Origin: Escherichia coli
GTDB taxonomy: Bacteria > Pseudomonadota > Gammaproteobacteria > Enterobacterales > Enterobacteriaceae
DNA: 64,000 nucleotides
Direction: 5' to 3' (one strand)
Assembly: GCF_003334305.1 (NCBI RefSeq)
Contig: NZ_QOWS01000025.1
Made by a program: the position numbers and the translations under genes. Under the pieces are notes generated by a model that did not search any database, had not been told where the DNA came from, and worked only from the letters and a program-made list of their open reading frames with translations. Below are positions 3,837-39,430 of the stretch, in pieces (position 1 is the stretch's first letter; every line of letters begins with the position of its first letter).

Positions 3837-6479
3837 TTACTGGTTTACTGAAATTGAAGTCGGAGGTTCCGTTGGCGTCACCCGCTGTGTCTGTTCCTGA
3901 ATCGCCGGTTTGACCGCCGGCGAAGTGATAGGTGCTACATTGCCTTTATGCTGGCATGGCAGTAACAAGCCGTTAAACAGATCGGCAGGCAGCGGGTCCG
4001 GCAGGTTGATATCGCAATGCGCAACACCACTCCAGAACACACTCATGTGTTCGCCAGGTTTCACCCCAGCCAGATAAACATTGCCGTCATCATCGACAAG
4101 GCCCACTGTCTGCTCGTTATCATTTTTTACTTCTGCGCCAAACGGAGGATGGCTGCCGTCTTGTAAACGCAGCACCGCCATCGCTTTTTGACCACTGATG
4201 ACGGCAAATTTGCGGTAGCCAATCGCCCCTTCAGTTAGCGTGGCTTGTACCACCGACTGGGTTGCTTCGGCGTTTTCCGGCAGTTTGTTGAGGTCGATAT
4301 ACGCCTGATTGCGGTAATAGTTATTGACGTCAGAAACGACGGCTTTACCAAACATATTGGTATAAACAGCAGCACCGTTACCTTCTACCGGAACATCGGC
4401 AACGCCATCGGCATCAATCAACAAGCGTGTCCCGCCCATATTCTGGGTACGGTGAAGTGCGCCACCGTGGGCAGTAAGCGTTGCGCCGCCCTGTAACGAC
4501 AAGCCCGCAGAGGTGTATTGCCCTTCATGGTAGTTCGCACTGAGGTCAACCTGCGCCAGCGAACCATCATGGCTGTAATAGCCGTCAACGCTGGTGTGTT
4601 TGTCACTGGTGCCGACGTTCAACTGATAGTGAGTCGCGTCATCGACACGGCTGAAATAACCGACCTGACTGCTGTCCGTCCCACTGCCATAGTTACCGTT
4701 ATAGCTAACGGTACTGTTGTCGCCCCACGGCATACTGAGCGAAATGTACATGCCTTTGTCGGCCTGGTTGTCATACTCGTAACGGTAGCCAGTCATCGAG
4801 ATGCTGACATTACGAATACTGCCCATATTGAAATAGTGCGAGAGCATGATGTTGTAGTTTGTCTGCTCCTCGCGATCCCAGTAGGTATGGCGGGTATAGT
4901 TGAGATAAACCGAAACACCCGCATCGCGGAAGTTCTGGTTATAAGTGGCGGTGTACATCTCTTTGTCGTTGCCCGTGCGTACCATTCCGCTGTCACTGGC
5001 ATCCAGATACTCGCTCATGGTCATAAAGTTCTCTTCCGAGAAGCGATATCCAGCAAAAGTAACGCGGCTGTTGAGCTGGTCAAAGTCTTTGGAATAACTC
5101 ACACGGAAGGAGTTACCGTCCAGCGAACCTTTGCCATAAGCGGTGTCTTTATCCAGTTTGGTGTGCGAGTGAGTAACATCAAACGCGACCGCGCCGAATG
5201 TAGACAAATCGCGACCGACGCCAAGCGCCGCAGACTGATAGTTTTCATCTCCCAGTGCGCCGCCATATAACGACCAGCCGTTAGCGATCCCCCAGGAAGC
5301 TTCAGCACCAGAAAAAAATTCACCCTCGACATGGTGTCCCCACTCTTGCGGACGGCCCATCATGATCTTATAGCGAACCTGACCTGGGCGAGTGAGGTAT
5401 GGCATCGAGGCGGTGCTGATGTCATATTCCTGCACCTGGCCGTTCTGTTCTTCAATGCGAATATGCAACGTACCGGAGACAGAATCACCAAGATCCTGAA
5501 TACGAAACGGTCCAGCCGGAACCTGCGTTTCGTAAATCACACGCCCCATCTGGCTGACGGTCACTTTTGCTGTGGTGTGTGCCACGCCGGAAATGTCTGG
5601 CGCGTAGCCGCGCAGATTGGGAGGCAACATTTGATCGTCAGTACTGACACTGCCACCAACATAGTTAAAACCATCAAAAATATCGGATCTGAGGTAATCC
5701 TCGCCCAGCGCCAGTTTGGCTTTTAATGATGGTAACGCCCGCCAGGCATAGTAGCGACTCCACTCCCATTTTTTTTGAGTTTCATCGCCGCTGAATTCAT
5801 CGTCATCATTACTGCGAGTATGTTGATAGTTAGTCTGCCAGTCAGCACGCATACGCCACGGCCCCAGGTTAACCCCGACCGTCCCGTTGCCGCTGATCTC
5901 GTTACTATCATCACCGCCATTTTCTTCGTGCCGGGTTTGTGCGTTGATGCTGTAGTCCGCGACGATCCCGGAGATGCCGTCATCCCAACGTGAAGGCGGA
6001 TCCCAGTCGGGATAAGTATATTCGAGGTAAGCCTGTGGCAGTGAAATGACTAATGCGGACTGGCTTAAATCAGCCTTAATTTCCATGCCTTCCAGTTGAC
6101 CGGATTTCAGGCATTTAGCATCGTGGCTCCATTGCAGATTTTTCGCCACGTCTTCTTTTAAACCAAACTGCGCTACCAGTTCCGGTGTCAGACAAGCATA
6201 GCTTTTGCTCGCGTCATCTTCACCAGCATACCAGTAAATATCGTACTCTTCCGCCAATGGCTGTTTATTTAGTTGAACCTGTAAATTGTATTTTCCGGGC
6301 TCAACATATCCCTGGCTGGAAAAACGCTTCAGATCAATTTTTGTGTCGCCTTTTAATTCCAGAAAACGGGAATCAAACTGAATGTCGTCTTCAGCCCAGA
6401 CACTGCTATAACTCCCTGACATTGCCAGCGCAATGCACCACGGAAGAATCCGTAATCGAAAAAGAGAATGGTCAGGCAT
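3837..6479 (-). CDS. yfcU: outer-membrane fimbrial usher YfcU, full length
   Basis: Uninterrupted 880-aa ORF with signal peptide, typical usher size; in K-12 this gene is a disrupted pseudogene. Confidence 0.9.
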   Translation of the reverse strand: MPDHSLFRLRILPWCIALAMSGSYSSVWAEDDIQFDSRFLELKGDTKIDLKRFSSQGYVEPGKYNLQVQLNKQPLAEEYDIYWYAGEDDASKSYACLTPELVAQFGLKEDVAKNLQWSHDAKCLKSGQLEGMEIKADLSQSALVISLPQAYLEYTYPDWDPPSRWDDGISGIVADYSINAQTRHEENGGDDSNEISGNGTVGVNLGPWRMRADWQTNYQHTRSNDDDEFSGDETQKKWEWSRYYAWRALPSLKAKLALGEDYLRSDIFDGFNYVGGSVSTDDQMLPPNLRGYAPDISGVAHTTAKVTVSQMGRVIYETQVPAGPFRIQDLGDSVSGTLHIRIEEQNGQVQEYDISTASMPYLTRPGQVRYKIMMGRPQEWGHHVEGEFFSGAEASWGIANGWSLYGGALGDENYQSAALGVGRDLSTFGAVAFDVTHSHTKLDKDTAYGKGSLDGNSFRVSYSKDFDQLNSRVTFAGYRFSEENFMTMSEYLDASDSGMVRTGNDKEMYTATYNQNFRDAGVSVYLNYTRHTYWDREEQTNYNIMLSHYFNMGSIRNVSISMTGYRYEYDNQADKGMYISLSMPWGDNSTVSYNGNYGSGTDSSQVGYFSRVDDATHYQLNVGTSDKHTSVDGYYSHDGSLAQVDLSANYHEGQYTSAGLSLQGGATLTAHGGALHRTQNMGGTRLLIDADGVADVPVEGNGAAVYTNMFGKAVVSDVNNYYRNQAYIDLNKLPENAEATQSVVQATLTEGAIGYRKFAVISGQKAMAVLRLQDGSHPPFGAEVKNDNEQTVGLVDDDGNVYLAGVKPGEHMSVFWSGVAHCDINLPDPLPADLFNGLLLPCQHKGNVAPITSPAVKPAIQEQTQRVTPTEPPTSISVNQ

Positions 6480-27972: not shown

Positions 27973-27990
27973 TTCTTACGCCTGTAGGAT
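27973..27990. promoter_or_regulatory. EvgA-box-like inverted repeat in the emrK/evgA divergent region
   Basis: TTCTTACGCCTGTAGGAT against consensus TTCYTACA-NN-TGTARGAA (7/8 and 7/8). Confidence 0.5.
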
Positions 27991-28214: not shown

Positions 28215-28829
28215 ATGAACGCAATAATTATTGATGACCATCCTCTTGCTATCGCAGCAATTCGTAATTTATTGATCAAAAACGATATTGAAATCTTAGC
28301 GGAGTTGACTGAAGGGGGAAGCGCCGTTCAGCGGGTGGAAACACTTAAGCCTGATATCGTCATCATTGATGTCGATATCCCCGGAGTTAACGGTATCCAG
28401 GTGTTAGAAACGCTGAGGAAGCGCCAATATAGCGGAATTATTATTATTGTCTCCGCTAAAAATGACCATTTTTACGGGAAACATTGTGCTGATGCTGGCG
28501 CTAATGGATTCGTGAGTAAAAAAGAAGGCATGAACAATATCATTGCGGCTATTGAAGCTGCAAAAAATGGCTACTGCTATTTCCCCTTCTCTCTCAACCG
28601 GTTTGTTGGAAGTTTAACGTCCGACCAGCAAAAACTCGACTCCTTATCGAAACAAGAAATTAGTGTCATGCGGTATATTCTTGATGGCAAGGATAATAAT
28701 GACATTGCTGAAAAAATGTTCATCAGCAACAAAACTGTCAGCACTTATAAAAGTCGCCTGATGGAAAAATTAGAATGTAAATCACTGATGGATCTTTACA
28801 CATTCGCGCAACGTAACAAAATCGGCTAA
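28215..28829 (+). CDS. evgA: response regulator EvgA (NarL/FixJ family)
   Basis: 204-aa ORF with receiver domain (MNAIIIDDHPLA, DIVIIDVDIPGVNG) and LuxR-type HTH C-terminus. Confidence 0.96.
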   Translation: MNAIIIDDHPLAIAAIRNLLIKNDIEILAELTEGGSAVQRVETLKPDIVIIDVDIPGVNGIQVLETLRKRQYSGIIIIVSAKNDHFYGKHCADAGANGFVSKKEGMNNIIAAIEAAKNGYCYFPFSLNRFVGSLTSDQQKLDSLSKQEISVMRYILDGKDNNDIAEKMFISNKTVSTYKSRLMEKLECKSLMDLYTFAQRNKIG

Positions 28830-28833
28830 TCAC

Positions 28834-31800
28834 ATGAAGTTTTTACCCTATTTTTTTCTTCTCTGTTGTGGTCTTTGGTCGACCATAAGTTTCGCAGACG
28901 AAGATTACATCGAATATCGTGGCATCAGTAGTAACAACCGTGTCACACTTGATCCAGTACGTCTGAGCAACAAGGAATTACGTTGGTTAGCGAGCAAAAA
29001 AAATCTTGTGATTGCAGTACACAAGTCCCAAACGGCTACCTTGTTGCATATCGATTCGCAGCAACAGGTTCGTGGTATTAATGCTGATTATTTAAATCTT
29101 TTAAAAAGAGCGTTAAATATCAAATTAACACTCCGGGAATACGCAGATCATCAAAAAGCAATGGACGCGCTGGAAGAAGGTGAAGTCGATATAGTGTTAT
29201 CACATTTAGTTACTTCGCCGCCTCTTAATAATGACATTGCTGCAACCAAACCATTGATAATTACCTTTCCGGCGCTGGTAACCACCCTTCACGACTCAAT
29301 GCGACCGCTTACCTCACCAAAACCAGTAAATATTGCTCGGGTAGCAAATTACCCCCCAGACGAGGTAATTCATCAATCATTTCCAAAAGCAACAATTATC
29401 TCTTTTACAAATTTATATCAGGCATTAGCATCCGTCTCAGCTGGGCACAATGATTACTTTATTGGTAGTAACATCATTACCAGCAGTATGATTTCCCGCT
29501 ATTTCACTCACTCCTTAAATGTAGTGAAATATTATAACTCGCCGCGTCAATATAATTTTTTCTTGACCAGAAAAGAATCTGTCATTCTTAATGAAGTACT
29601 CAATAGATTTGTTGATGCTTTAACAAATGAAGTTCGCTATGAAGTATCACAAAATTGGCTTGATACAGGAAACCTGGCCTTTCTGAACAAACCATTAGAA
29701 CTCACTGAACATGAAAAACAGTGGATTAAGCAGCATCCCAATTTAAAGGTGCTGGAAAATCCTTACTCGCCCCCCTATTCTATGACGGATGAAAATGGCT
29801 CGGTTCGGGGCGTTATGGGGGACATTCTTAATATTATTACCTTGCAAACAGGTTTAAATTTTTCTCCGATCACCGTTTCACACAATATCCATGCTGGAAC
29901 ACAGCTTAGCCCCGGAGGATGGGATATAATACCTGGCGCTATTTATAGTGAAGATCGAGAAAATAATGTTTTATTTGCTGAAGCCTTCATAACAACGCCT
30001 TACGTTTTTGTCATGCAAAAAGCGCCTGACAGTGAACAAACATTAAAAAAAGGAATGAAAGTTGCCATTCCATATTATTATGAGCTGCATTCGCAATTAA
30101 AAGAGATGTATCCGGAGGTTGAATGGATACAGGTCGATAATGCCAGCGCTGCATTTCACAAGGTTAAGGAAGGTGAACTTGATGCTCTGGTCGCGACACA
30201 GTTAAATTCGCGTTACATGATCGATCATTACTATCCTAATGAACTTTATCATTTTCTTATTCCTGGCGTTCCGAATGCATCGCTTTCGTTCGCTTTTCCT
30301 CGCGGAGAACCGGAACTTAAGGATATTATTAATAAAGCACTGAATGCAATTCCCCCAAGCGAAGTTCTGCGCCTGACGGAAAAATGGATTAAAATGCCCA
30401 ATGTGACCATTGACACATGGGATCTATATAGCGAGCAATTTTATATTGTTACGACATTATCCGTTTTATTAGTTGGCAGTAGCCTTTTATGGGGATTCTA
30501 CCTGTTACGCTCAGTTCGTCGTCGTAAAGTCATTCAGGGTGATTTAGAAAACCAAATATCATTCCGAAAAGCACTCTCGGATTCCTTACCGAATCCAACT
30601 TATGTTGTAAACTGGCAAGGTAATGTCATTAGTCATAATAGTGCTTTTGAACATTATTTCACTGCGGATTACTACAAAAATGCAATGTTACCATTAGAAA
30701 ACAGTGACTCACCCTTTAAAGATGTTTTTTCTAATGCGCATGAAGTCACAGCAGAAACGAAAGAAAATCGAACAATATACACACAGGTATTTGAAATTGA
30801 TAATGGCATCGAGAAAAGATGCATTAATCACTGGCATACATTATGCAATCTTCCTGCAAGTGACAATGCAGTATATATTTGTGGTTGGCAAGATATTACT
30901 GAAACGCGTGATCTAATTAATGCACTCGAGGTAGAAAAAAATAAAGCGATAAAGGCTACCGTAGCAAAAAGTCAGTTTCTGGCAACGATGAGTCACGAAA
31001 TAAGAACACCAATAAGCTCTATTATGGGCTTCCTGGAACTTCTGTCGGGTTCTGGTCTTAGCAAGGAGCAACGGGTGGAGGCGATTTCACTTGCCTACGC
31101 CACCGGACAATCACTCCTCGGCTTAATTGGTGAAATCCTTGATGTCGACAAAATTGAATCGGGTAACTATCAACTTCAACCACAATGGGTCGATATCCCT
31201 ACTTTAGTCCAGAACACTTGTCACTCTTTCGGTGCGATTGCTGCAAGCAAATCCATCGCATTAAGTTGCAGCAGTACATTTCCTGATCATTACCTGGTTA
31301 AGATCGATCCTCAGGCGTTTAAGCAGGTCTTATCAAATTTACTGAGCAATGCTCTCAAATTTACCACCGAGGGGGCAGTAAAAATTACGACCTCCCTGGT
31401 TCACATTGATGACAACCACGCTGTTATCAAAATGACGATTATGGATTCTGGAAGTGGATTATCGCAGGAAGAACAACAACAACTCTTTAAACGCTACAGC
31501 CAAACAAGTGCAGGTCGCCAGCAAACAGGATCTGGCTTAGGCTTAATGATCTGCAAAGAATTAATTAAAAATATGCAGGGCGATTTGTCATTAGAAAGTC
31601 ATCCAGGCATAGGAACAACATTTACGATCACAATCCCGGTAGAAATTAGCCAGCAAGTGGCGACTGTCGAGGCAAAAGCAGAACACCCCATCACACTACC
31701 TGAAAAGTTGAGCATATTAATCGCGGATGATCATCCGACCAACAGGCTATTACTCAAACGCCAGCTAAATCTATTAGGATATGATGTTGATGAAGCCACT

Positions 31801-32427
31801 GATGGTGTGCAAGCGCTACACAAAGTCAGTATGCAACATTATGATCTGCTTATTACTGACGTTAATATGCCGAATATGGATGGTTTTGAGTTGACTCGCA
31901 AACTCCGTGAGCAAAATTCTTCCTTACCCATCTGGGGGCTTACAGCCAACGCACAGGCTAACGAACGTGAAAAAGGGTTAAGTTGCGGCATGAACTTATG
32001 TTTGTTCAAACCGTTGACCCTGGATGTACTGAAAACACATTTAAGTCAGTTACACCAGGTTGCGCATATTGCACCTCAGTATCGCCACCTTGATATCGAA
32101 GCCCTGAAAAATAATACGGCGAACGATCTACAACTGATGCAGGAGATTCTCATGACTTTCCAGCATGAAACGCATAAAGATCTACCCGCTGCGTTTCAAG
32201 CACTAGAAGCTGGCGATAACAGAACTTTCCATCAGTGTATTCATCGCATCCACGGTGCGGCTAACATCCTGAATTTGCAAAAGTTGATTAATATTAGCCA
32301 TCAGTTAGAAATAACACCTGTTTCAGATGACAGTAAGCCTGAAATTCTTCAGTTGCTGAACTCTGTAAAAGAACACATTGCAGAGCTGGACCAGGAGATT
32401 GCTGTTTTCTGTCAGAAAAATGACTAA
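28834..32427 (+). CDS. evgS: hybrid sensor histidine kinase EvgS (periplasmic domains, HisKA/HATPase, receiver, HPt)
   Basis: 1197-aa ORF with signal peptide, H-box (MSHEIRTPISSIMGF), receiver (ILIADDHPTNRLL) and C-terminal HPt region. Confidence 0.96.
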   Translation: MKFLPYFFLLCCGLWSTISFADEDYIEYRGISSNNRVTLDPVRLSNKELRWLASKKNLVIAVHKSQTATLLHIDSQQQVRGINADYLNLLKRALNIKLTLREYADHQKAMDALEEGEVDIVLSHLVTSPPLNNDIAATKPLIITFPALVTTLHDSMRPLTSPKPVNIARVANYPPDEVIHQSFPKATIISFTNLYQALASVSAGHNDYFIGSNIITSSMISRYFTHSLNVVKYYNSPRQYNFFLTRKESVILNEVLNRFVDALTNEVRYEVSQNWLDTGNLAFLNKPLELTEHEKQWIKQHPNLKVLENPYSPPYSMTDENGSVRGVMGDILNIITLQTGLNFSPITVSHNIHAGTQLSPGGWDIIPGAIYSEDRENNVLFAEAFITTPYVFVMQKAPDSEQTLKKGMKVAIPYYYELHSQLKEMYPEVEWIQVDNASAAFHKVKEGELDALVATQLNSRYMIDHYYPNELYHFLIPGVPNASLSFAFPRGEPELKDIINKALNAIPPSEVLRLTEKWIKMPNVTIDTWDLYSEQFYIVTTLSVLLVGSSLLWGFYLLRSVRRRKVIQGDLENQISFRKALSDSLPNPTYVVNWQGNVISHNSAFEHYFTADYYKNAMLPLENSDSPFKDVFSNAHEVTAETKENRTIYTQVFEIDNGIEKRCINHWHTLCNLPASDNAVYICGWQDITETRDLINALEVEKNKAIKATVAKSQFLATMSHEIRTPISSIMGFLELLSGSGLSKEQRVEAISLAYATGQSLLGLIGEILDVDKIESGNYQLQPQWVDIPTLVQNTCHSFGAIAASKSIALSCSSTFPDHYLVKIDPQAFKQVLSNLLSNALKFTTEGAVKITTSLVHIDDNHAVIKMTIMDSGSGLSQEEQQQLFKRYSQTSAGRQQTGSGLGLMICKELIKNMQGDLSLESHPGIGTTFTITIPVEISQQVATVEAKAEHPITLPEKLSILIADDHPTNRLLLKRQLNLLGYDVDEATDGVQALHKVSMQHYDLLITDVNMPNMDGFELTRKLREQNSSLPIWGLTANAQANEREKGLSCGMNLCLFKPLTLDVLKTHLSQLHQVAHIAPQYRHLDIEALKNNTANDLQLMQEILMTFQHETHKDLPAAFQALEAGDNRTFHQCIHRIHGAANILNLQKLINISHQLEITPVSDDSKPEILQLLNSVKEHIAELDQEIAVFCQKND

Positions 32428-32482: not shown

Positions 32483-33628
32483 TTATGATGAGAACTCCTG
32501 GCGAATTTGTTCCCCATGCTGGTCGAGCGTTGCCGCTCCCGGCATAACATGCGGGTCCGCGCAGCCGCTGATTTTTATCGGATTACCCGGCATCATTATT
32601 CCCCCGGCTTCAATCAACATATTTCTCGCCTGAGTTTGTGGCAATTTAATGGCCTCAGCCACACTTAATAACGGCGCGACGGGTACACCAACTTCATGTA
32701 TTCTGGCTAACCAAACTTCAGCTGCCTGCGTTTTTAACGTCCGCTCAATATATTGTTTAAGAATAGCCTGGTTTTGTACGCGTAAAATATTGCTGCTAAA
32801 TCGGGGATCATTAACCAGTTCCGTAAGCTCCAGTGCCTGGCATAACGCAGAAAAAAGCTTGTCATTACCACAACAAATCGTAATCGGCTTATCCTGAGTA
32901 TTGAAAACATCAAAAGGTGCCATGTAGGGATGGCGATTTCCCAGACGTTGTGGTGACTTCCCTGTCGCGATATATGCCATCAGACCATGCTCCAGAAAAC
33001 TCAGCGTGGCATCAAACATCGCTATATCGACATGCGCCCCTCTCTGGCTCTTTTCGCGGCCATAAAGTGCACTCACTATTCCGCTGAATAAATAGACACC
33101 GCCGCATAGATCCGCAAGAGATGTACCAACGCGCACTGGCGGAGCATCAGGATATCCTGTTTCCATCATTATCCCGCTCATTGCCTGAATGATGGTATCG
33201 TAGGCAGGAGCATCTTTTAGCGGACCGGTATGTCCGAAACCTGACGATGAAGCATATATGAGGCGCGGGTTGATTTCTTGAAGCATTTCCCATGAAAACC
33301 CCAGTTTTTCCATTGTACCTGGGCGAAAATTCTCAGCTAATACATCAGCTTGTTTGAGCATATTTATAAATATACTTTTATCGTGATCATTCTTTAAATC
33401 AAGAACCACACTCTCTTTGCCATGATTAATAAAACTGTAATAGAGTGACTGTCCATCCACATAGGGACCAAATGTGCGGGTATCATCACCATGACCTGGT
33501 GGCTCAACTTTAATTACCCTTGCGCCCATATTACAAAGAAGTTGAGTTCCGAAAGGTCCATTAAGGACATGTGTCATATCGATAACTAATAAGCCTTCAA
33601 ACGGCCCTTTGCTTTCATTATTTGTCAT
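32483..33628 (-). CDS. yfdE: acetyl-CoA:oxalate CoA-transferase YfdE (family III CoA-transferase)
   Basis: Family III CoA-transferase (CaiB/BaiF type); start moved to internal Met (MTNNESKGPFEGLLVID), giving 381 aa. Confidence 0.9.
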   Translation of the reverse strand: MTNNESKGPFEGLLVIDMTHVLNGPFGTQLLCNMGARVIKVEPPGHGDDTRTFGPYVDGQSLYYSFINHGKESVVLDLKNDHDKSIFINMLKQADVLAENFRPGTMEKLGFSWEMLQEINPRLIYASSSGFGHTGPLKDAPAYDTIIQAMSGIMMETGYPDAPPVRVGTSLADLCGGVYLFSGIVSALYGREKSQRGAHVDIAMFDATLSFLEHGLMAYIATGKSPQRLGNRHPYMAPFDVFNTQDKPITICCGNDKLFSALCQALELTELVNDPRFSSNILRVQNQAILKQYIERTLKTQAAEVWLARIHEVGVPVAPLLSVAEAIKLPQTQARNMLIEAGGIMMPGNPIKISGCADPHVMPGAATLDQHGEQIRQEFSS

Positions 33629-33701
33629 TTGCTTATGCCTTGAAAAAAGCCGAAGGTGAAAAGACACTTCGGCATTTATGTAAAATCAATAACATGATTA
33701 A

Positions 33702-34646
33702 TTATGAAACCAGTCGACTGACATAAATCCACAAGGGAGCCGTGACGACAAAACCCAGTACGCTCACAGCCAATGACGCTGTACCAGTGCGGGTGTAGAC
33801 ATTAAACCGGCTGGCAATAATGATTCCGGAGAATGCCGGCGGTAATGCGCCTGCCAGTACCATCATCTGCAAATGTTCGCTGTTCAAATGACATGCCATA
33901 CCAACGAGAAGCAGCGCCAGTGGCATCAGAATCAGCTTCAGGAAGGTGTTATAAGCAATTTCGGCACTGAACTCGAATTTATGTGCAGCCAGAGTCAACC
34001 CCGCAGCGAATACCGCTACCCCTGAGTTAGCCTTCGCAATCAGATTAAAGGTTGGGTCCCATGCTGCCGGAATTTTTACCCCAACCAACACCAGGATCGT
34101 TGCCAGAACAGGTGCCCATACAACTGGCTCCTTTGCCGCAGAAATTAATGCGCTCAGATTACTATTCTTCTTACCATCCGCTCCTGAGGAAGGATTCAGC
34201 AAATACAGACCAATAGGAATAGTAATTGCGTTAACAATAATAGAAATAATTGCTACCACTAAACCTGTTGATACGGAATCACCATAAATAGGATCGAGAA
34301 CTGCAAACCCCAGGAATCCAATGGTAGGTGAACCTGCAATTAATGCACATACAGCTGCTTCTGCATGGGTACGTTTAAAAAATTTGTAGCAACCGAACCA
34401 GGAGAAAAAGAAACATCCGACAATAACCACAAGTGATACAAGGGTCAGACGAGTGTCCGCAAAAATCATTTCCCTGTTTGCCCGAGTAATAGATACAAAT
34501 AGAGCCGCAGGAAGCGCGTAGTTTAATACCAGTTTATTAAATGCCCGAGCTTGATCTTCTGAAAAAGTTTCTCGTCTGCCGCTAAAATAACCCAACAGCA
34601 TGATTACGATAATAGGCAATAAATCGCCAATAAAAAATGTTAGCAT
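33702..34646 (-). CDS. yfdV: auxin-efflux-carrier (AEC) family membrane transporter YfdV
   Basis: 314-aa polytopic membrane ORF located between oxc and yfdE. Confidence 0.9.
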
Positions 34647-34715: not shown

Positions 34716-36410
34716 TTAATTACCAGCGACTTGTTTTGGGTTAAGTTTGGTAATATGGCCACTTTCAGTTCCTGCTGCAGGGTCGATGACCACATTAATA
34801 ATGGTCGGTTTGCGCGACTGAATACCGGTGGTTAAAGCATGACGAAGTTCATCTGTCGTGGTGACGTTATAGCCAACGCCACGAAACGCATCCATTAATT
34901 TGTCATACCTTGCATGGTGCAACAGATCCGTTGGTGATGGTGCACCAGCGCCACTGAGATCAACACCGTCTCCTCTGTAGATGCCGCCATTATTAAAAAT
35001 AACGATCGTCACCGGCAGGTTATATCGACAAATCGTTTCAATTTCCATCCCACTGAAACCAAAAGCACTATCACCTTCAATGGCGACAACCGGAGAACCA
35101 GAAGTCACGCTAGCACCGATGGCATAGCCCATACCGATGCCCATGACACCCCAGGTACCACAATCCAGACGACGACGTGGTTTATACATATCAATAATAT
35201 TTCGTGCATTATCCAGGGTATTTGCACCTTCATTAACTAAATAAATATCCTGGTTCTCGCGCAATACGTCGCGCACAGCACTTAATGCATTAAAGTAATT
35301 TAATGGTTGAGTATCTGTACTTAATTTTTCATGCATTTTTTGTGCATTTTGCTGCTTGTGGATATTTAAAATATCGCGCCATACCAGTGGAGTCGTAAAT
35401 GTGTTTTGTTTCAGTTCTGCCAGCATACCTTGCATACTGGATGCAATATCACCAACGACTGGCACAGCAATGGGGCGGTTGCTGTCAATTTCCTGCGGTT
35501 CAATATCCAGTTGAATAAACTGTGTATCTGCCGCCCATCCTTTTTTACCGTGTGCCAATAACCAATTCAGTCGTGCACCAACAAGCATGACAACGTCAGC
35601 ATTTGCCAGGGCAAACGAACGCGCAGCTGCCGCAGAAAGTGGATGCGTATCTTCAAGGATCCCTTTCGCCATAGACATTGGCAGGAATGGAATCTGAGTA
35701 CTTTCAATAAATTCACGAAGCTGTTCATCAGCTTGTGAATACGCCGCGCCTTTGCCAAGGATAATTAATGGCCGTTCAGCTTTTGCTAAAAGCGAAATTG
35801 CGCTAGTGACTGACTTCGGGCATGGCAATAATGCTGGCGATGGATTTTCAACTTTAACAATCGTGGTTAACGCTTCGTCTTTTTCCATCGTCGCGGCCAG
35901 GACATTTGCTGGCAAATCAAGATAAACTCCGCCAGGGCGACCCGATACAGAGACCCGGATAGCGCGTGCCAATGCAATGCCAAGATCCTGCGGCTGATTA
36001 ACGCGAAATGCTGCTTTGGCATACGGTTTTGCCGCATTCATTTGGTCCAGCTCTTCATAATCACCTTGCTGTAGGTCGACGATCGCGCGGTCGCTGGAGC
36101 CGCTAATCATGATCATCGGAAAACCATTTACCGTTGCGTTGGCCAATGCGGTCAAACCATTGAGGAATCCTGGCGCAGAAACTGTCAGGCAGATCCCCGG
36201 TTTTTGGGTAAGAAAACCGCTTGCCGCAGCGGCATAGCCTGCCGACTGCTCATGACGAAAACCAATATAACGAATGCCTTCCGCCTGGGCATGGCGTGCC
36301 ATATCCGTCACAGGAATACCTACAACACCATAAATAGTGTCAATATTATTCTGTTTTAATGCTTCAACGATGATATGCATACCATCTGTCATTTGAAGTT
36401 GATCTGACAT
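34716..36410 (-). CDS. oxc: oxalyl-CoA decarboxylase (ThDP-dependent)
   Basis: 564-aa ORF with ThDP-enzyme architecture including the GDSAFGFSGMEIETICRYNLPVTIVIFNNGG motif. Confidence 0.95.
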   Translation of the reverse strand: MSDQLQMTDGMHIIVEALKQNNIDTIYGVVGIPVTDMARHAQAEGIRYIGFRHEQSAGYAAAASGFLTQKPGICLTVSAPGFLNGLTALANATVNGFPMIMISGSSDRAIVDLQQGDYEELDQMNAAKPYAKAAFRVNQPQDLGIALARAIRVSVSGRPGGVYLDLPANVLAATMEKDEALTTIVKVENPSPALLPCPKSVTSAISLLAKAERPLIILGKGAAYSQADEQLREFIESTQIPFLPMSMAKGILEDTHPLSAAAARSFALANADVVMLVGARLNWLLAHGKKGWAADTQFIQLDIEPQEIDSNRPIAVPVVGDIASSMQGMLAELKQNTFTTPLVWRDILNIHKQQNAQKMHEKLSTDTQPLNYFNALSAVRDVLRENQDIYLVNEGANTLDNARNIIDMYKPRRRLDCGTWGVMGIGMGYAIGASVTSGSPVVAIEGDSAFGFSGMEIETICRYNLPVTIVIFNNGGIYRGDGVDLSGAGAPSPTDLLHHARYDKLMDAFRGVGYNVTTTDELRHALTTGIQSRKPTIINVVIDPAAGTESGHITKLNPKQVAGN

Positions 36411-36463: not shown

Positions 36464-37714
36464 TCAGATGGCGTGGTTTTGCTTCATTGCAGCAATTTCA
36501 TCGTCGCTATAACCCAGCTCCTGCAATACAGCAGCGGTATGTTCACCTAATAGCGGCGCAGCTTTAATATCCGGCGTAAAGGCAGAGAATTTCATTGGAC
36601 AACCAACGGTCAGATATTTTCCACGCAACGGTTGTTCCACTTCAACAACACTGCCACTTTGGCGCAAAGAGGGATCAAGTGAAATTTCTTTCATACTTAA
36701 AACCGGTGCACAAGGAATATCAAACTGAGTCAAATAGGCCACCGCTTCATGTTTATCAATAGTGACAGTGTATTTTTCGATTTCAGCAAAAATATCGAAA
36801 ATATGTGGCTGTCGTGCATGGGCTGTACTGTATGCCGGATCGGTAATCCATTCTGGTTTGCCGATGGCTTTACAGGTGTTTTCCCAGTTTTGCTCCTGAA
36901 TAGTGAAATAAATATAGGCGTTAGGATCGGTTTCCCAGCCTTTACATTTCAGGATCCAGCCAGGCTGACCGCCACCACCTGCATTACCACCGCGGGGAAC
37001 TGCATCACCAAATGTACCATTCGGATACTGCGGGTATTCTTCCAGATAACCCAATTTATCGAGACGCTGCTGGTCACGTAATTTCACGCGGCAAAGGTTC
37101 AATACGGCATCCTGCATTGACATGGTGACTCGTTGCCCACGCCCCGTTTTTTCGCGATGCAGCAAAGCAGCAAGTAAACCGATCAGCAAATGCATTCCGG
37201 TGTTGCTGTCACCCAACGCTGCAGCGCTTACCAGCGGCGGACCATCCCAAAAACCCGTAGTGGATGCCGCGCCACCCGCTGCCTGAGCAACGTTTTCATA
37301 GGCTTTTACATTCACATAAGGCGAACACTCATCAAACCCTTTGATCGAACCAAAAATCAGACGTGGATTGATTTCTTGAATATGCTCCCAGGTGAAGCCC
37401 ATGTGATCAATGGCCCCTGGATGAAAGTTCTCGACTAAGATATCAGCTTCGCGGATCAGCTTTTCCATTACCTCTTTGCCTTCCGCTGTTTTGGTATTTA
37501 ACTCAATAGAACGTTTGTTACTGTTAAGCATGGTGAAGTAAAGCGCATCGATATCAGGAATATCTCGCAGCTGGTGACGCGTTACGTCACCAACGCCGGG
37601 ACGTTCAATTTTAATAACGTCAGCGCCAAACCAGGCCAGCATTTGAGTACAAGATGGGCCAGATTGCACACCGGTGAAATCGAGAACTTTAATTCCTTGA
37701 AGTGGAGTTGACAT
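36464..37714 (-). CDS. frc: formyl-CoA:oxalate CoA-transferase Frc (YfdW)
   Basis: 416-aa family III CoA-transferase ([43 protein letters not shown]). Confidence 0.95.
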
Positions 37715-37965
37715 AGCAATACCTATTAGTTAATTAAATATGTGTTAATTTAGCGTTTATTTAAGGCGTAATATCTTCTATAAATAACCCGCAAAATATC
37801 GTCGTAGCTGCACTCGATATTTTTAAAATCCTGTATCAAGTGCTGAAAATCATTTCATCGCCACTTCCAATTCCTTTCTGCATGGTAAGTAGTGAGGACG
37901 AAAAGAAGAATATGATAAATATTGATTCGTGGTAATCAGAGAGAGTCGCGACATTTGTGATGTTA

Positions 37966-37983
37966 TTCTTACAACTGTAAGAA
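37966..37983. promoter_or_regulatory. perfect EvgA consensus box upstream of frc
   Basis: TTCTTACAACTGTAAGAA matches both half-sites exactly; about 250 bp upstream of frc start; coordinates cross-checked against an overlapping ORF-track frame. Confidence 0.55.
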
Positions 37984-38226
37984 GCGCCGGTGATTTACAA
38001 GTAAGGGTATGATTACGCTTTTTAAAGCGTACCATAAAACATAACATAATAAATGATTTGTGATGACACGGGATTATTGGGATTTACTTTGAGGAAGATA
38101 AAATGCGTGTTTATAGAACCGCGAGCGCCAAATAATTTTATGACCACAACCTGTCGTATTGTGGTCATAAAAAATTGTCGGCTGGAGGGAGTTAAATCCT
38201 TTACCTCAATATACTGCCTGTCAGCA

Positions 38227-38859
38227 TTAGTTCACAAACAGTGCTTCGCTGTCGACGATGATTCCATCTTCCGCACCTTTAAGCGCCAGGTTTGCCTCGT
38301 AGTATTGCTTTTTATCAAGCAGTTTCTGCGCATCAGCAAGTGCATTACGAGTCTGTTTAAGCGGCATCAGATATTGGTTTTCCATTACGCCAACACCGGC
38401 CAGGCGAAGTTCTTCCATTGCGCCCTTTTTATCCCCTTTCGCCATTTTTTCATTGGCAATTTTTATCGCGGCTTCTTTTTCGGGAGTTGCTACATAGCTC
38501 TCAGAAATTCCGACAGATGCATTAATGACAATATATTGGTCATCATTGAGATTGGTCTTTTTACCTGGCTTAGCGAACTTTGCCCATTCGGTACTGTCAT
38601 CTGACAGCAAAGCGGAAGCTTCATTGGTCAGTTCTTTTGCCTTTTCTGGATCGCCATGAAACAGAGCCAGGCGCGCTACCTGCACGTCACGCATCGCATA
38701 TAAACCTTGTTCAGAGATACGCTCTGCTGCTGCCGTTTTCTGGGTTTGCTGAACTTGCTGAGTTTGCTGTTGTGCCGCTACCGGTGCATTATCAGCAGCC
38801 CATACAGTTGAAGATGCCAGAATTGCTGTGACCATCGTGGCCATAATTAAACGTTTCAT
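38227..38859 (-). CDS. yfdX: periplasmic protein YfdX (EvgA-induced)
   Basis: 210-aa ORF with signal peptide, Q-rich linker and YfdX-family body; EvgA boxes upstream. Confidence 0.9.
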
Positions 38860-38956
38860 ACTTACCTCATTCTTTAACAGTTTTAGAAAACGCCGCCATC
38901 ATATTGGGTGAGCATGAAATGAGAAATCAGAGAGCAACGGTCATTTTGAAAGGGTT

Positions 38957-39012
38957 ATCTTACAGTTGTAGTTATTATCGCAAGAAGTATTTTAGTCTTA
39001 CAATTGTAGGAA
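38957..39012. promoter_or_regulatory. two EvgA-box-like sites upstream of yfdX
   Basis: ATCTTACAGTTGTAGTTA (weaker) and GTCTTACAATTGTAGGAA (15/16 half-site match), 100-150 bp upstream of yfdX start. Confidence 0.5.
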
Positions 39013-39154
39013 TATGCTTCCTGTCACAGAGAACTATTCTTATGTACCACAAAGAGATGTCATTTATTATATCGATGTAAATATTGATTAATTATATGTA
39101 AATACAGCCATAACATCGTAGGTCCTCAGTGAACCATTTTCAGGATAACTTTCT

Positions 39155-39430
39155 ATGAAAGTAAACTTAATACTTTTTAGCTTATTTTTATTGGTCTCTA
39201 TTATGGCATGCAATGTTTTTGCATTTTCCATTTCTGGTGGTGGAAGTGAGAGGAGCTATAAAGAGACGGAAAAAACATCAGCGATGACGATAACTCACTC
39301 TACAAAACTTCAGCCATCACAGGCAATTTTGTTTAAGATGAGAGAAGATGCGCCACCATTAAACCTCACAGAAGAAACCACGCCCCCTTTTCCGACAAAG
39401 GCGAATTATCTTATTCATCCTGTGCGATAG
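39155..39430 (+). CDS. ypdI: small lipoprotein YpdI
   Basis: 91-aa ORF with signal peptide and lipobox-like MAC motif (VSIMACNVF); K-12 syntenic position. Confidence 0.8.
   Translation: MKVNLILFSLFLLVSIMACNVFAFSISGGGSERSYKETEKTSAMTITHSTKLQPSQAILFKMREDAPPLNLTEETTPPFPTKANYLIHPVR

Follow-up and report, generated by a model that had tools for sequence, protein, structure and literature searches.

The arrangement of the evgAS-yfdX locus of Escherichia coli raises the question whether frc, which encodes formyl-CoA transferase, and the genes downstream of it are transcribed from an EvgA-activated promoter of their own, or whether they depend on the promoter of the neighboring gene yfdX. The window analyzed here, a stretch of 64,000 nucleotides, is collinear with K-12 MG1655 from emrY to ypdI (emrYK-evgAS-yfdE-yfdV-oxc-frc-yfdX-ypdI), and genes are named after the RefSeq annotation of E. 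coli sequences that are identical to it or nearly so. The two-component system is encoded on the plus strand by evgA (28215-28829) and evgS (28834-32427). On the minus strand frc (yfdW, 36464-37714) is the first gene of a unit that continues with oxc (34716-36410), yfdV (33702-34646) and yfdE (32483-33667 as the longest open reading frame, 32483-33628 by K-12 annotation). Upstream of it lies yfdX (38227-38859, minus strand), which has its own EvgA-dependent promoter.

To locate EvgA sites, the window was scanned with the consensus TTCYTACA-NN-TGTARGAA (8-2-8). Positions 37966-37983 carry the letters TTCTTACAACTGTAAGAA, which read TTCTTACAGTTGTAAGAA on the frc strand and form a perfect inverted repeat of 18 bp that fits TTCYTACANNTGTARGAA without a single mismatch; the box was assigned to neither strand. 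It is located inside the 512-bp non-coding spacer between yfdX and frc, with 251 nt between it and the frc start codon (ATG). Both statements of the first-pass annotation on this point, that the two half-sites are free of mismatches and that the box lies in the yfdX-frc intergenic region about 250 bp before frc, were thus borne out. Given the base composition of the window, a perfect box is expected by chance 7e-5 times per 64 kb and 0.005 times per 4.6-Mb genome. When up to three mismatches were allowed, four matches were obtained in the window versus 0.73 expected, and all four were found in the emrK/evgA, yfdX-frc and yfdX-ypdI spacers, which are the places where EvgA sites are expected. 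The consensus was presumably taken from EvgA-regulated promoters, with the frc promoter probably among them, and since it was probably derived in part from the frc site, there is some circularity in the absence of mismatches. This does not touch the evidence from conservation.

A 751-bp query across the site matched 5,413 of 5,426 complete E. coli genomes with 90-100% identity, the matched features being annotated as yfdX and frc. K-12 carries an identical frc box, and where its yfdX-frc spacer departs from that of the window (six differences), this is between the box and yfdX, within 38002-38117. For the alignment, seven E. coli genomes (95.6-100% identity) and the GTDB species representative were used. 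Genomes were further sampled from every identity band of the ~5,400, and in 11 of the 11 sampled E. coli genomes the 16 specified positions of the half-sites were invariant; the sole change seen within the 18 bp was GT to GC at one unspecified central base (genome L002). With a 44-bp query centered on the frc box, 5,408 matching records were obtained, of which 4,176 were identical, 171 showed 95-99% identity and 1,061 about 93% identity. In the sampled members of the ~93% class three substitutions were found (ACCGGCGC to ACTGACAC), all of them in the 8 bp directly upstream of an intact box. The same pattern was observed for both yfdX boxes, where the half-sites are fixed while the central dinucleotide and the inter-box spacer are variable. 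Fixed half-sites together with a variable center and variable flanks mark a site to which a protein binds and which is kept by selection. Within the yfdX-frc spacer, conservation is highest in the stretch that starts with the box and runs to ~130 nt downstream of it.

These data bear directly on the idea that the frc box is a palindrome by chance, or a remnant without function. The probable derivation of the consensus from the frc site itself is the one point that speaks for it. Against it stand the expectation of 7e-5 chance matches per window, the invariance of the half-sites across the sampled E. coli genomes amid variable flanks, and the EvgA binding reported in two publications (PMC3720670; PMC8147483), so that we regard this explanation as effectively refuted already and give it next to no weight.

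To compare the frc box with other EvgA sites, boxes were located by the consensus in K-12, in the regions of further genes reported as EvgA targets. Among the seven boxes examined the frc box is the sole perfect match. One mismatch was found in the boxes of safA and yegR and in the distal yfdX box (38995-39012), two in those of ydeP and of emrK (27973-27990, in the divergent emrK-evgA spacer), and three in the proximal yfdX box (38957-38974); the three boxes for which window coordinates are given here outside the frc promoter are likewise not assigned to a strand. The regulon boxes of ydeP, safA-ydeO, yegR, emrKY and yfdX represent the same 18-bp orientation-independent palindrome as that of frc, with one to three mismatches to the consensus versus none. 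Unlike them, the frc box is situated amid a cluster of co-oriented genes and not at its head. At yfdX the weaker proximal box shows the canonical spacing to the -10 element, and the near-perfect distal box follows 38 bp further upstream, whereas the frc promoter has a single box in the canonical position. In the K-12 spacer upstream of gadE no box was detected at up to four mismatches, and gadE was therefore left out of the anchored comparison. A match with two mismatches, TTCTTACGCATGAAAGAA (5887-5904 of the K-12 sequence L084), was observed inside the coding region of mdtE. A similar organization is known for the 7-2-7 heptamer pairs of NarL, which, as the frc box, are inverted repeats with a 2-bp center bound by a dimer of a GerE/LuxR-type HTH output domain; the half-sites differ in sequence and length (7-2-7 versus 8-2-8), and the likeness is an analogy only.

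For a comparison of their layout, the promoters were aligned at the box and followed in the direction of the gene. A -10-like hexamer starting ~52-54 nt past the box is common to safA (TATATT), ydeP (TAATTT), emrK (TTAAAT/TAAATT), yegR (TATTAT), proximal yfdX (candidate TATGAT, 38903-38898) and frc. By this box-anchored spacing the -10 region of frc is predicted at 37909-37917 on the minus strand, where the overlapping hexamers TATCAT (37917-37912) and CATATT (37914-37909) are present; the -10-like hexamer of frc thus occupies offsets 52-57 (or 49-54) versus 53-59 at the five other promoters. A single polymorphism, C to T, was found in this region and it improves both candidate hexamers. From the consensus and this spacing, transcription of frc is predicted to start near 37902 (about 37901-37903), which would place the center of the box near -73.5 and give a leader of ~190 nt. 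The long distance to the start codon is not unusual for the EvgA regulon, since the distance from box to ATG at ydeP is of similar length (243 nt versus 251 nt at frc). From the box to frc, a consensus promoter scan of the minus strand returned no hexamer pair scoring at least 9/12, which is expected for an activator-dependent promoter, yet is not positive evidence for one. The hexamers published for the frc-yfdX spacer (TTTATA-18-AATAAT; PMC3946193) found no match in the spacer by a tolerant pattern and were for this reason not used.

The second part of the question is whether transcripts from yfdX reach frc. A terminator scan identified a terminator-like hairpin 3' of yfdX (38136-38172, minus strand) whose 15-bp stem runs into the tail UUAUUUGG, positioned between the yfdX stop codon and the frc box. 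Its folding energy is -25.4 kcal/mol (z -5.5), and 0 of 200 shuffled sequences folded as well. The stem is conserved: two variable positions were found in the stem-loop, of which one leads to a G-U pair and the other is in the loop. The hairpin passes the consensus terminator scan, although its stem contains only four G-C pairs and its U-tract is interrupted, and because of this interruption termination after yfdX may be partial.

Insertion sequences provided an additional view on the separation of the two genes. In strain SW07164 an IS1 element (709-1476 of sequence L093) is inserted into the yfdX-frc spacer at ~38099-38107, between the hairpin and the box, and in M505 an IS1 is found at a similar place, as judged by the position of the transposase gene, in the orientation opposite to that of SW07164. 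Neither insertion disrupts the box-frc unit, which is consistent with frc having its own promoter. The IS1 of SW07164 shows an apparent 9-bp target duplication.

The position of the hairpin also helps to judge whether the box might act on yfdX and not on frc, either as a roadblock or as the anchor of a loop with the yfdX boxes ~1 kb upstream. Three boxes (frc and the two of yfdX) within ~1.05 kb would fit such an arrangement. The frc box, however, is downstream of the yfdX hairpin and hence outside the yfdX unit, and its fixed spacing to the downstream -10-like element as well as the conserved ~130-nt block point to frc. An action on yfdX is accordingly considered extremely improbable.

More has to be said about a single operon, in which most transcription of frc-oxc-yfdVE would come from read-through of transcripts started at the yfdX promoter, and the box would only boost expression, for example by countering H-NS or by helping elongation, without a promoter of its own. 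The unit is named yfdXWUVE in several papers, the U-tract of the hairpin is imperfect, and under acid stress yfdX, frc, oxc and yfdV are similarly induced, being among the most induced genes with a log2 fold change of ~4-5 (PMC10746267). Furthermore, the spacer is AT-rich (35.5% GC) and was flagged as H-NS-associated in a genomic SELEX study with the RpoD holoenzyme (PMC3946193). This very study, however, placed a promoter for frc in the frc-yfdX spacer, meaning that RNA polymerase alone selects this region. In addition, the box-to-(-10) geometry of frc is the same as in promoters that have no upstream element other than the box, and the IS1 elements separate yfdX from the box in two strains, in opposite orientations, and leave the box-frc unit intact. 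Finally, Mullins et al. 2013 (PMC3720670), citing Masuda & Church 2003, state that inverted repeats bound by EvgA induce "yfdX and yfdWUVE", and thereby give two separately induced units. Taking both sides into account, we consider a single operon unlikely.

The proposal of the first-pass annotation that an EvgA-dependent promoter would drive frc independently of the yfdX promoter is thus supported on the sequence level by the invariant half-sites, the shared -10 spacing, the hairpin and the IS1 strains, and by the promoter found in SELEX. With a probability that we put at roughly 90%, frc-oxc-yfdV-yfdE have a sigma-70 promoter of their own, which is activated by a phosphorylated EvgA dimer bound to the palindrome, and yfdX forms another EvgA-activated unit, most of whose transcripts stop at the hairpin. 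The sequence, conservation, geometry and hairpin were observed here, while EvgA binding and EvgA-dependent induction are taken from the literature.

In this scheme for a separate frc promoter, mild acid would cause EvgS to phosphorylate EvgA, a NarL/FixJ-type response regulator encoded 5 kb away. The phosphorylated dimer would then occupy the 18-bp palindrome as its high-affinity site, with a predicted center at about -73.5, and would recruit or stabilize RNA polymerase at a promoter whose -35 element is poor and whose -10 region is predicted at 37909-37917; both the mode of polymerase contact and the exact start site are inferred. Transcription from ~37902 would run through the ~190-nt leader into frc-oxc-yfdV-yfdE. 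Transcripts of yfdX would mostly end at the hairpin at 38136-38172, with a termination efficiency that is likewise inferred, so that the oxalate-decarboxylation genes would depend on their own box.

The role of EvgA at frc has support from several published data sets. In constitutive evgS mutants no genes are induced more strongly than frc and oxc, and the EvgA sites detected were confined to genes whose regulation by EvgA was already known (PMC4283999). A direct EvgA site explains this strong induction. Itou et al. in 2009 reportedly identified frc as a direct EvgA target, and we take the RegulonDB/EcoCyc entries to list it in the same way. A further publication includes frc among the promoters bound by EvgA (PMC8147483). 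Based on the two secondary citations (PMC3720670 and PMC8147483), the EvgA site of frc and the activation of frc by EvgA are already known. This wiring is a direct link between acid sensing by EvgS/EvgA and the oxalyl-CoA decarboxylation cycle of frc and oxc, a branch of acid resistance that consumes protons. As the wiring is already in the literature, finding the box again adds no new biology; the frc box rather serves as a positive control, in which a real regulatory site was correctly recognized from its letters. The small additions made here are the predicted start and leader length, the constraint on the population scale and a possible extended architecture of EvgA binding.

This last addition concerns the stretch between the box and the -35 position. 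At offsets 23-32 past the frc box the element CTCTCTGATT is present (37934-37943, minus strand), which contains the half-site-like motif TCTGA (37940-37936) at -40 to -35. An identical 10-mer is found at 38925-38934 (minus strand), at the same offset of 23-32 past the proximal yfdX box, and the occurrence at the same offset suggests a common origin or a common constraint. Across the six anchored promoters, offsets 26-30 form the best-conserved five-column block past the box, and the pattern TCYKA could be assigned to all six (TCTGA in frc and yfdX, TCCTA in safA and yegR, TCTTA in ydeP and TCCTC in emrK). The EvgA regulon promoters therefore share with frc both the ~52 nt to the -10-like hexamer and TCYKA at offsets 26-30. 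For the six promoters the information content of this block was reached in 0 of 5,000 random-shift trials (p<2e-4); with the four clearly independent promoters a p value of 0.008 was obtained. A CA dinucleotide at offsets 9-10 is likewise present in 6/6 promoters. A half-site weight matrix built from 14 known half-sites scored best, in forward orientation, at offsets 25 and 3, which is 42 and 20 bp past the first half-site of the box, and these matches are weak (mean PWM score about -1 versus a maximum of 12.8).

Half-site-like elements with a phase of ~21 bp between box and -35 are possibly an unreported detail of these promoters. The closest studied homologue of EvgA is BvgA of Bordetella. 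BvgA-activated promoters such as fhaB have a high-affinity inverted repeat beyond -70 and weaker sites that are filled cooperatively down to -35. Similarly, frc shows an inverted repeat far upstream of -35 and half-site-like elements 20-22 bp apart; its secondary elements, however, are weak matches, and its half-site sequence is unlike that of BvgA. As a tentative idea to which we assign a low likelihood, the EvgA-activated promoters including that of frc may thus have a fixed extended architecture, on which EvgA would oligomerize cooperatively in a BvgA-like manner from the box to -35 and contact RNA polymerase. Such an oligomerization, if true, would explain how a distant site activates a promoter lacking a recognizable -35 element.

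The predicted leader of frc was inspected for RNA elements and small open reading frames. An Rfam scan of 37600-39200 at E<=1 returned only two chance-level eukaryotic hits, and hence no RNA element of a known family for the predicted 190-nt leader. A 15-codon reading frame (MQKGIGSGDEMIFST, 37883-37836, minus strand) in the predicted leader was rejected, as it lacks a Shine-Dalgarno sequence and is not conserved in its C-terminus and stop codon. A 65-aa reading frame at 37850-38047 was rejected as a gene as well; it spans the box and begins upstream of the predicted promoter. The predicted leader also harbors a two-codon mini-ORF (ATG-AAA-TGA) preceded by GGAAG. The first ~60 nt of the predicted leader are highly conserved, while the ends of the reading frames are not. 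In K-12 no small protein is annotated at this leader, whereas evgL is annotated upstream of evgA.

To see how far the EvgA control of frc extends beyond Escherichia, homologues of Frc were compared in species-representative genomes. Among the matches listed, the closest Frc outside Escherichia is that of Moellerella wisconsensis (87% identity), followed by homologues from Paraburkholderia and other Burkholderiaceae (at most 78%). M. wisconsensis possesses frc-oxc, and no match to the EvgA box was found there at up to three mismatches. From the homologue matches listed, the control of frc by EvgA looks like an Escherichia-specific wiring. The GC content is 47% for frc, 41% for evgS and 34-36% for the spacers, compared to 48% for the window. 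The below-average GC content and the nearest relatives of Frc among the matches listed suggest that the evg-yfd cluster was acquired horizontally.
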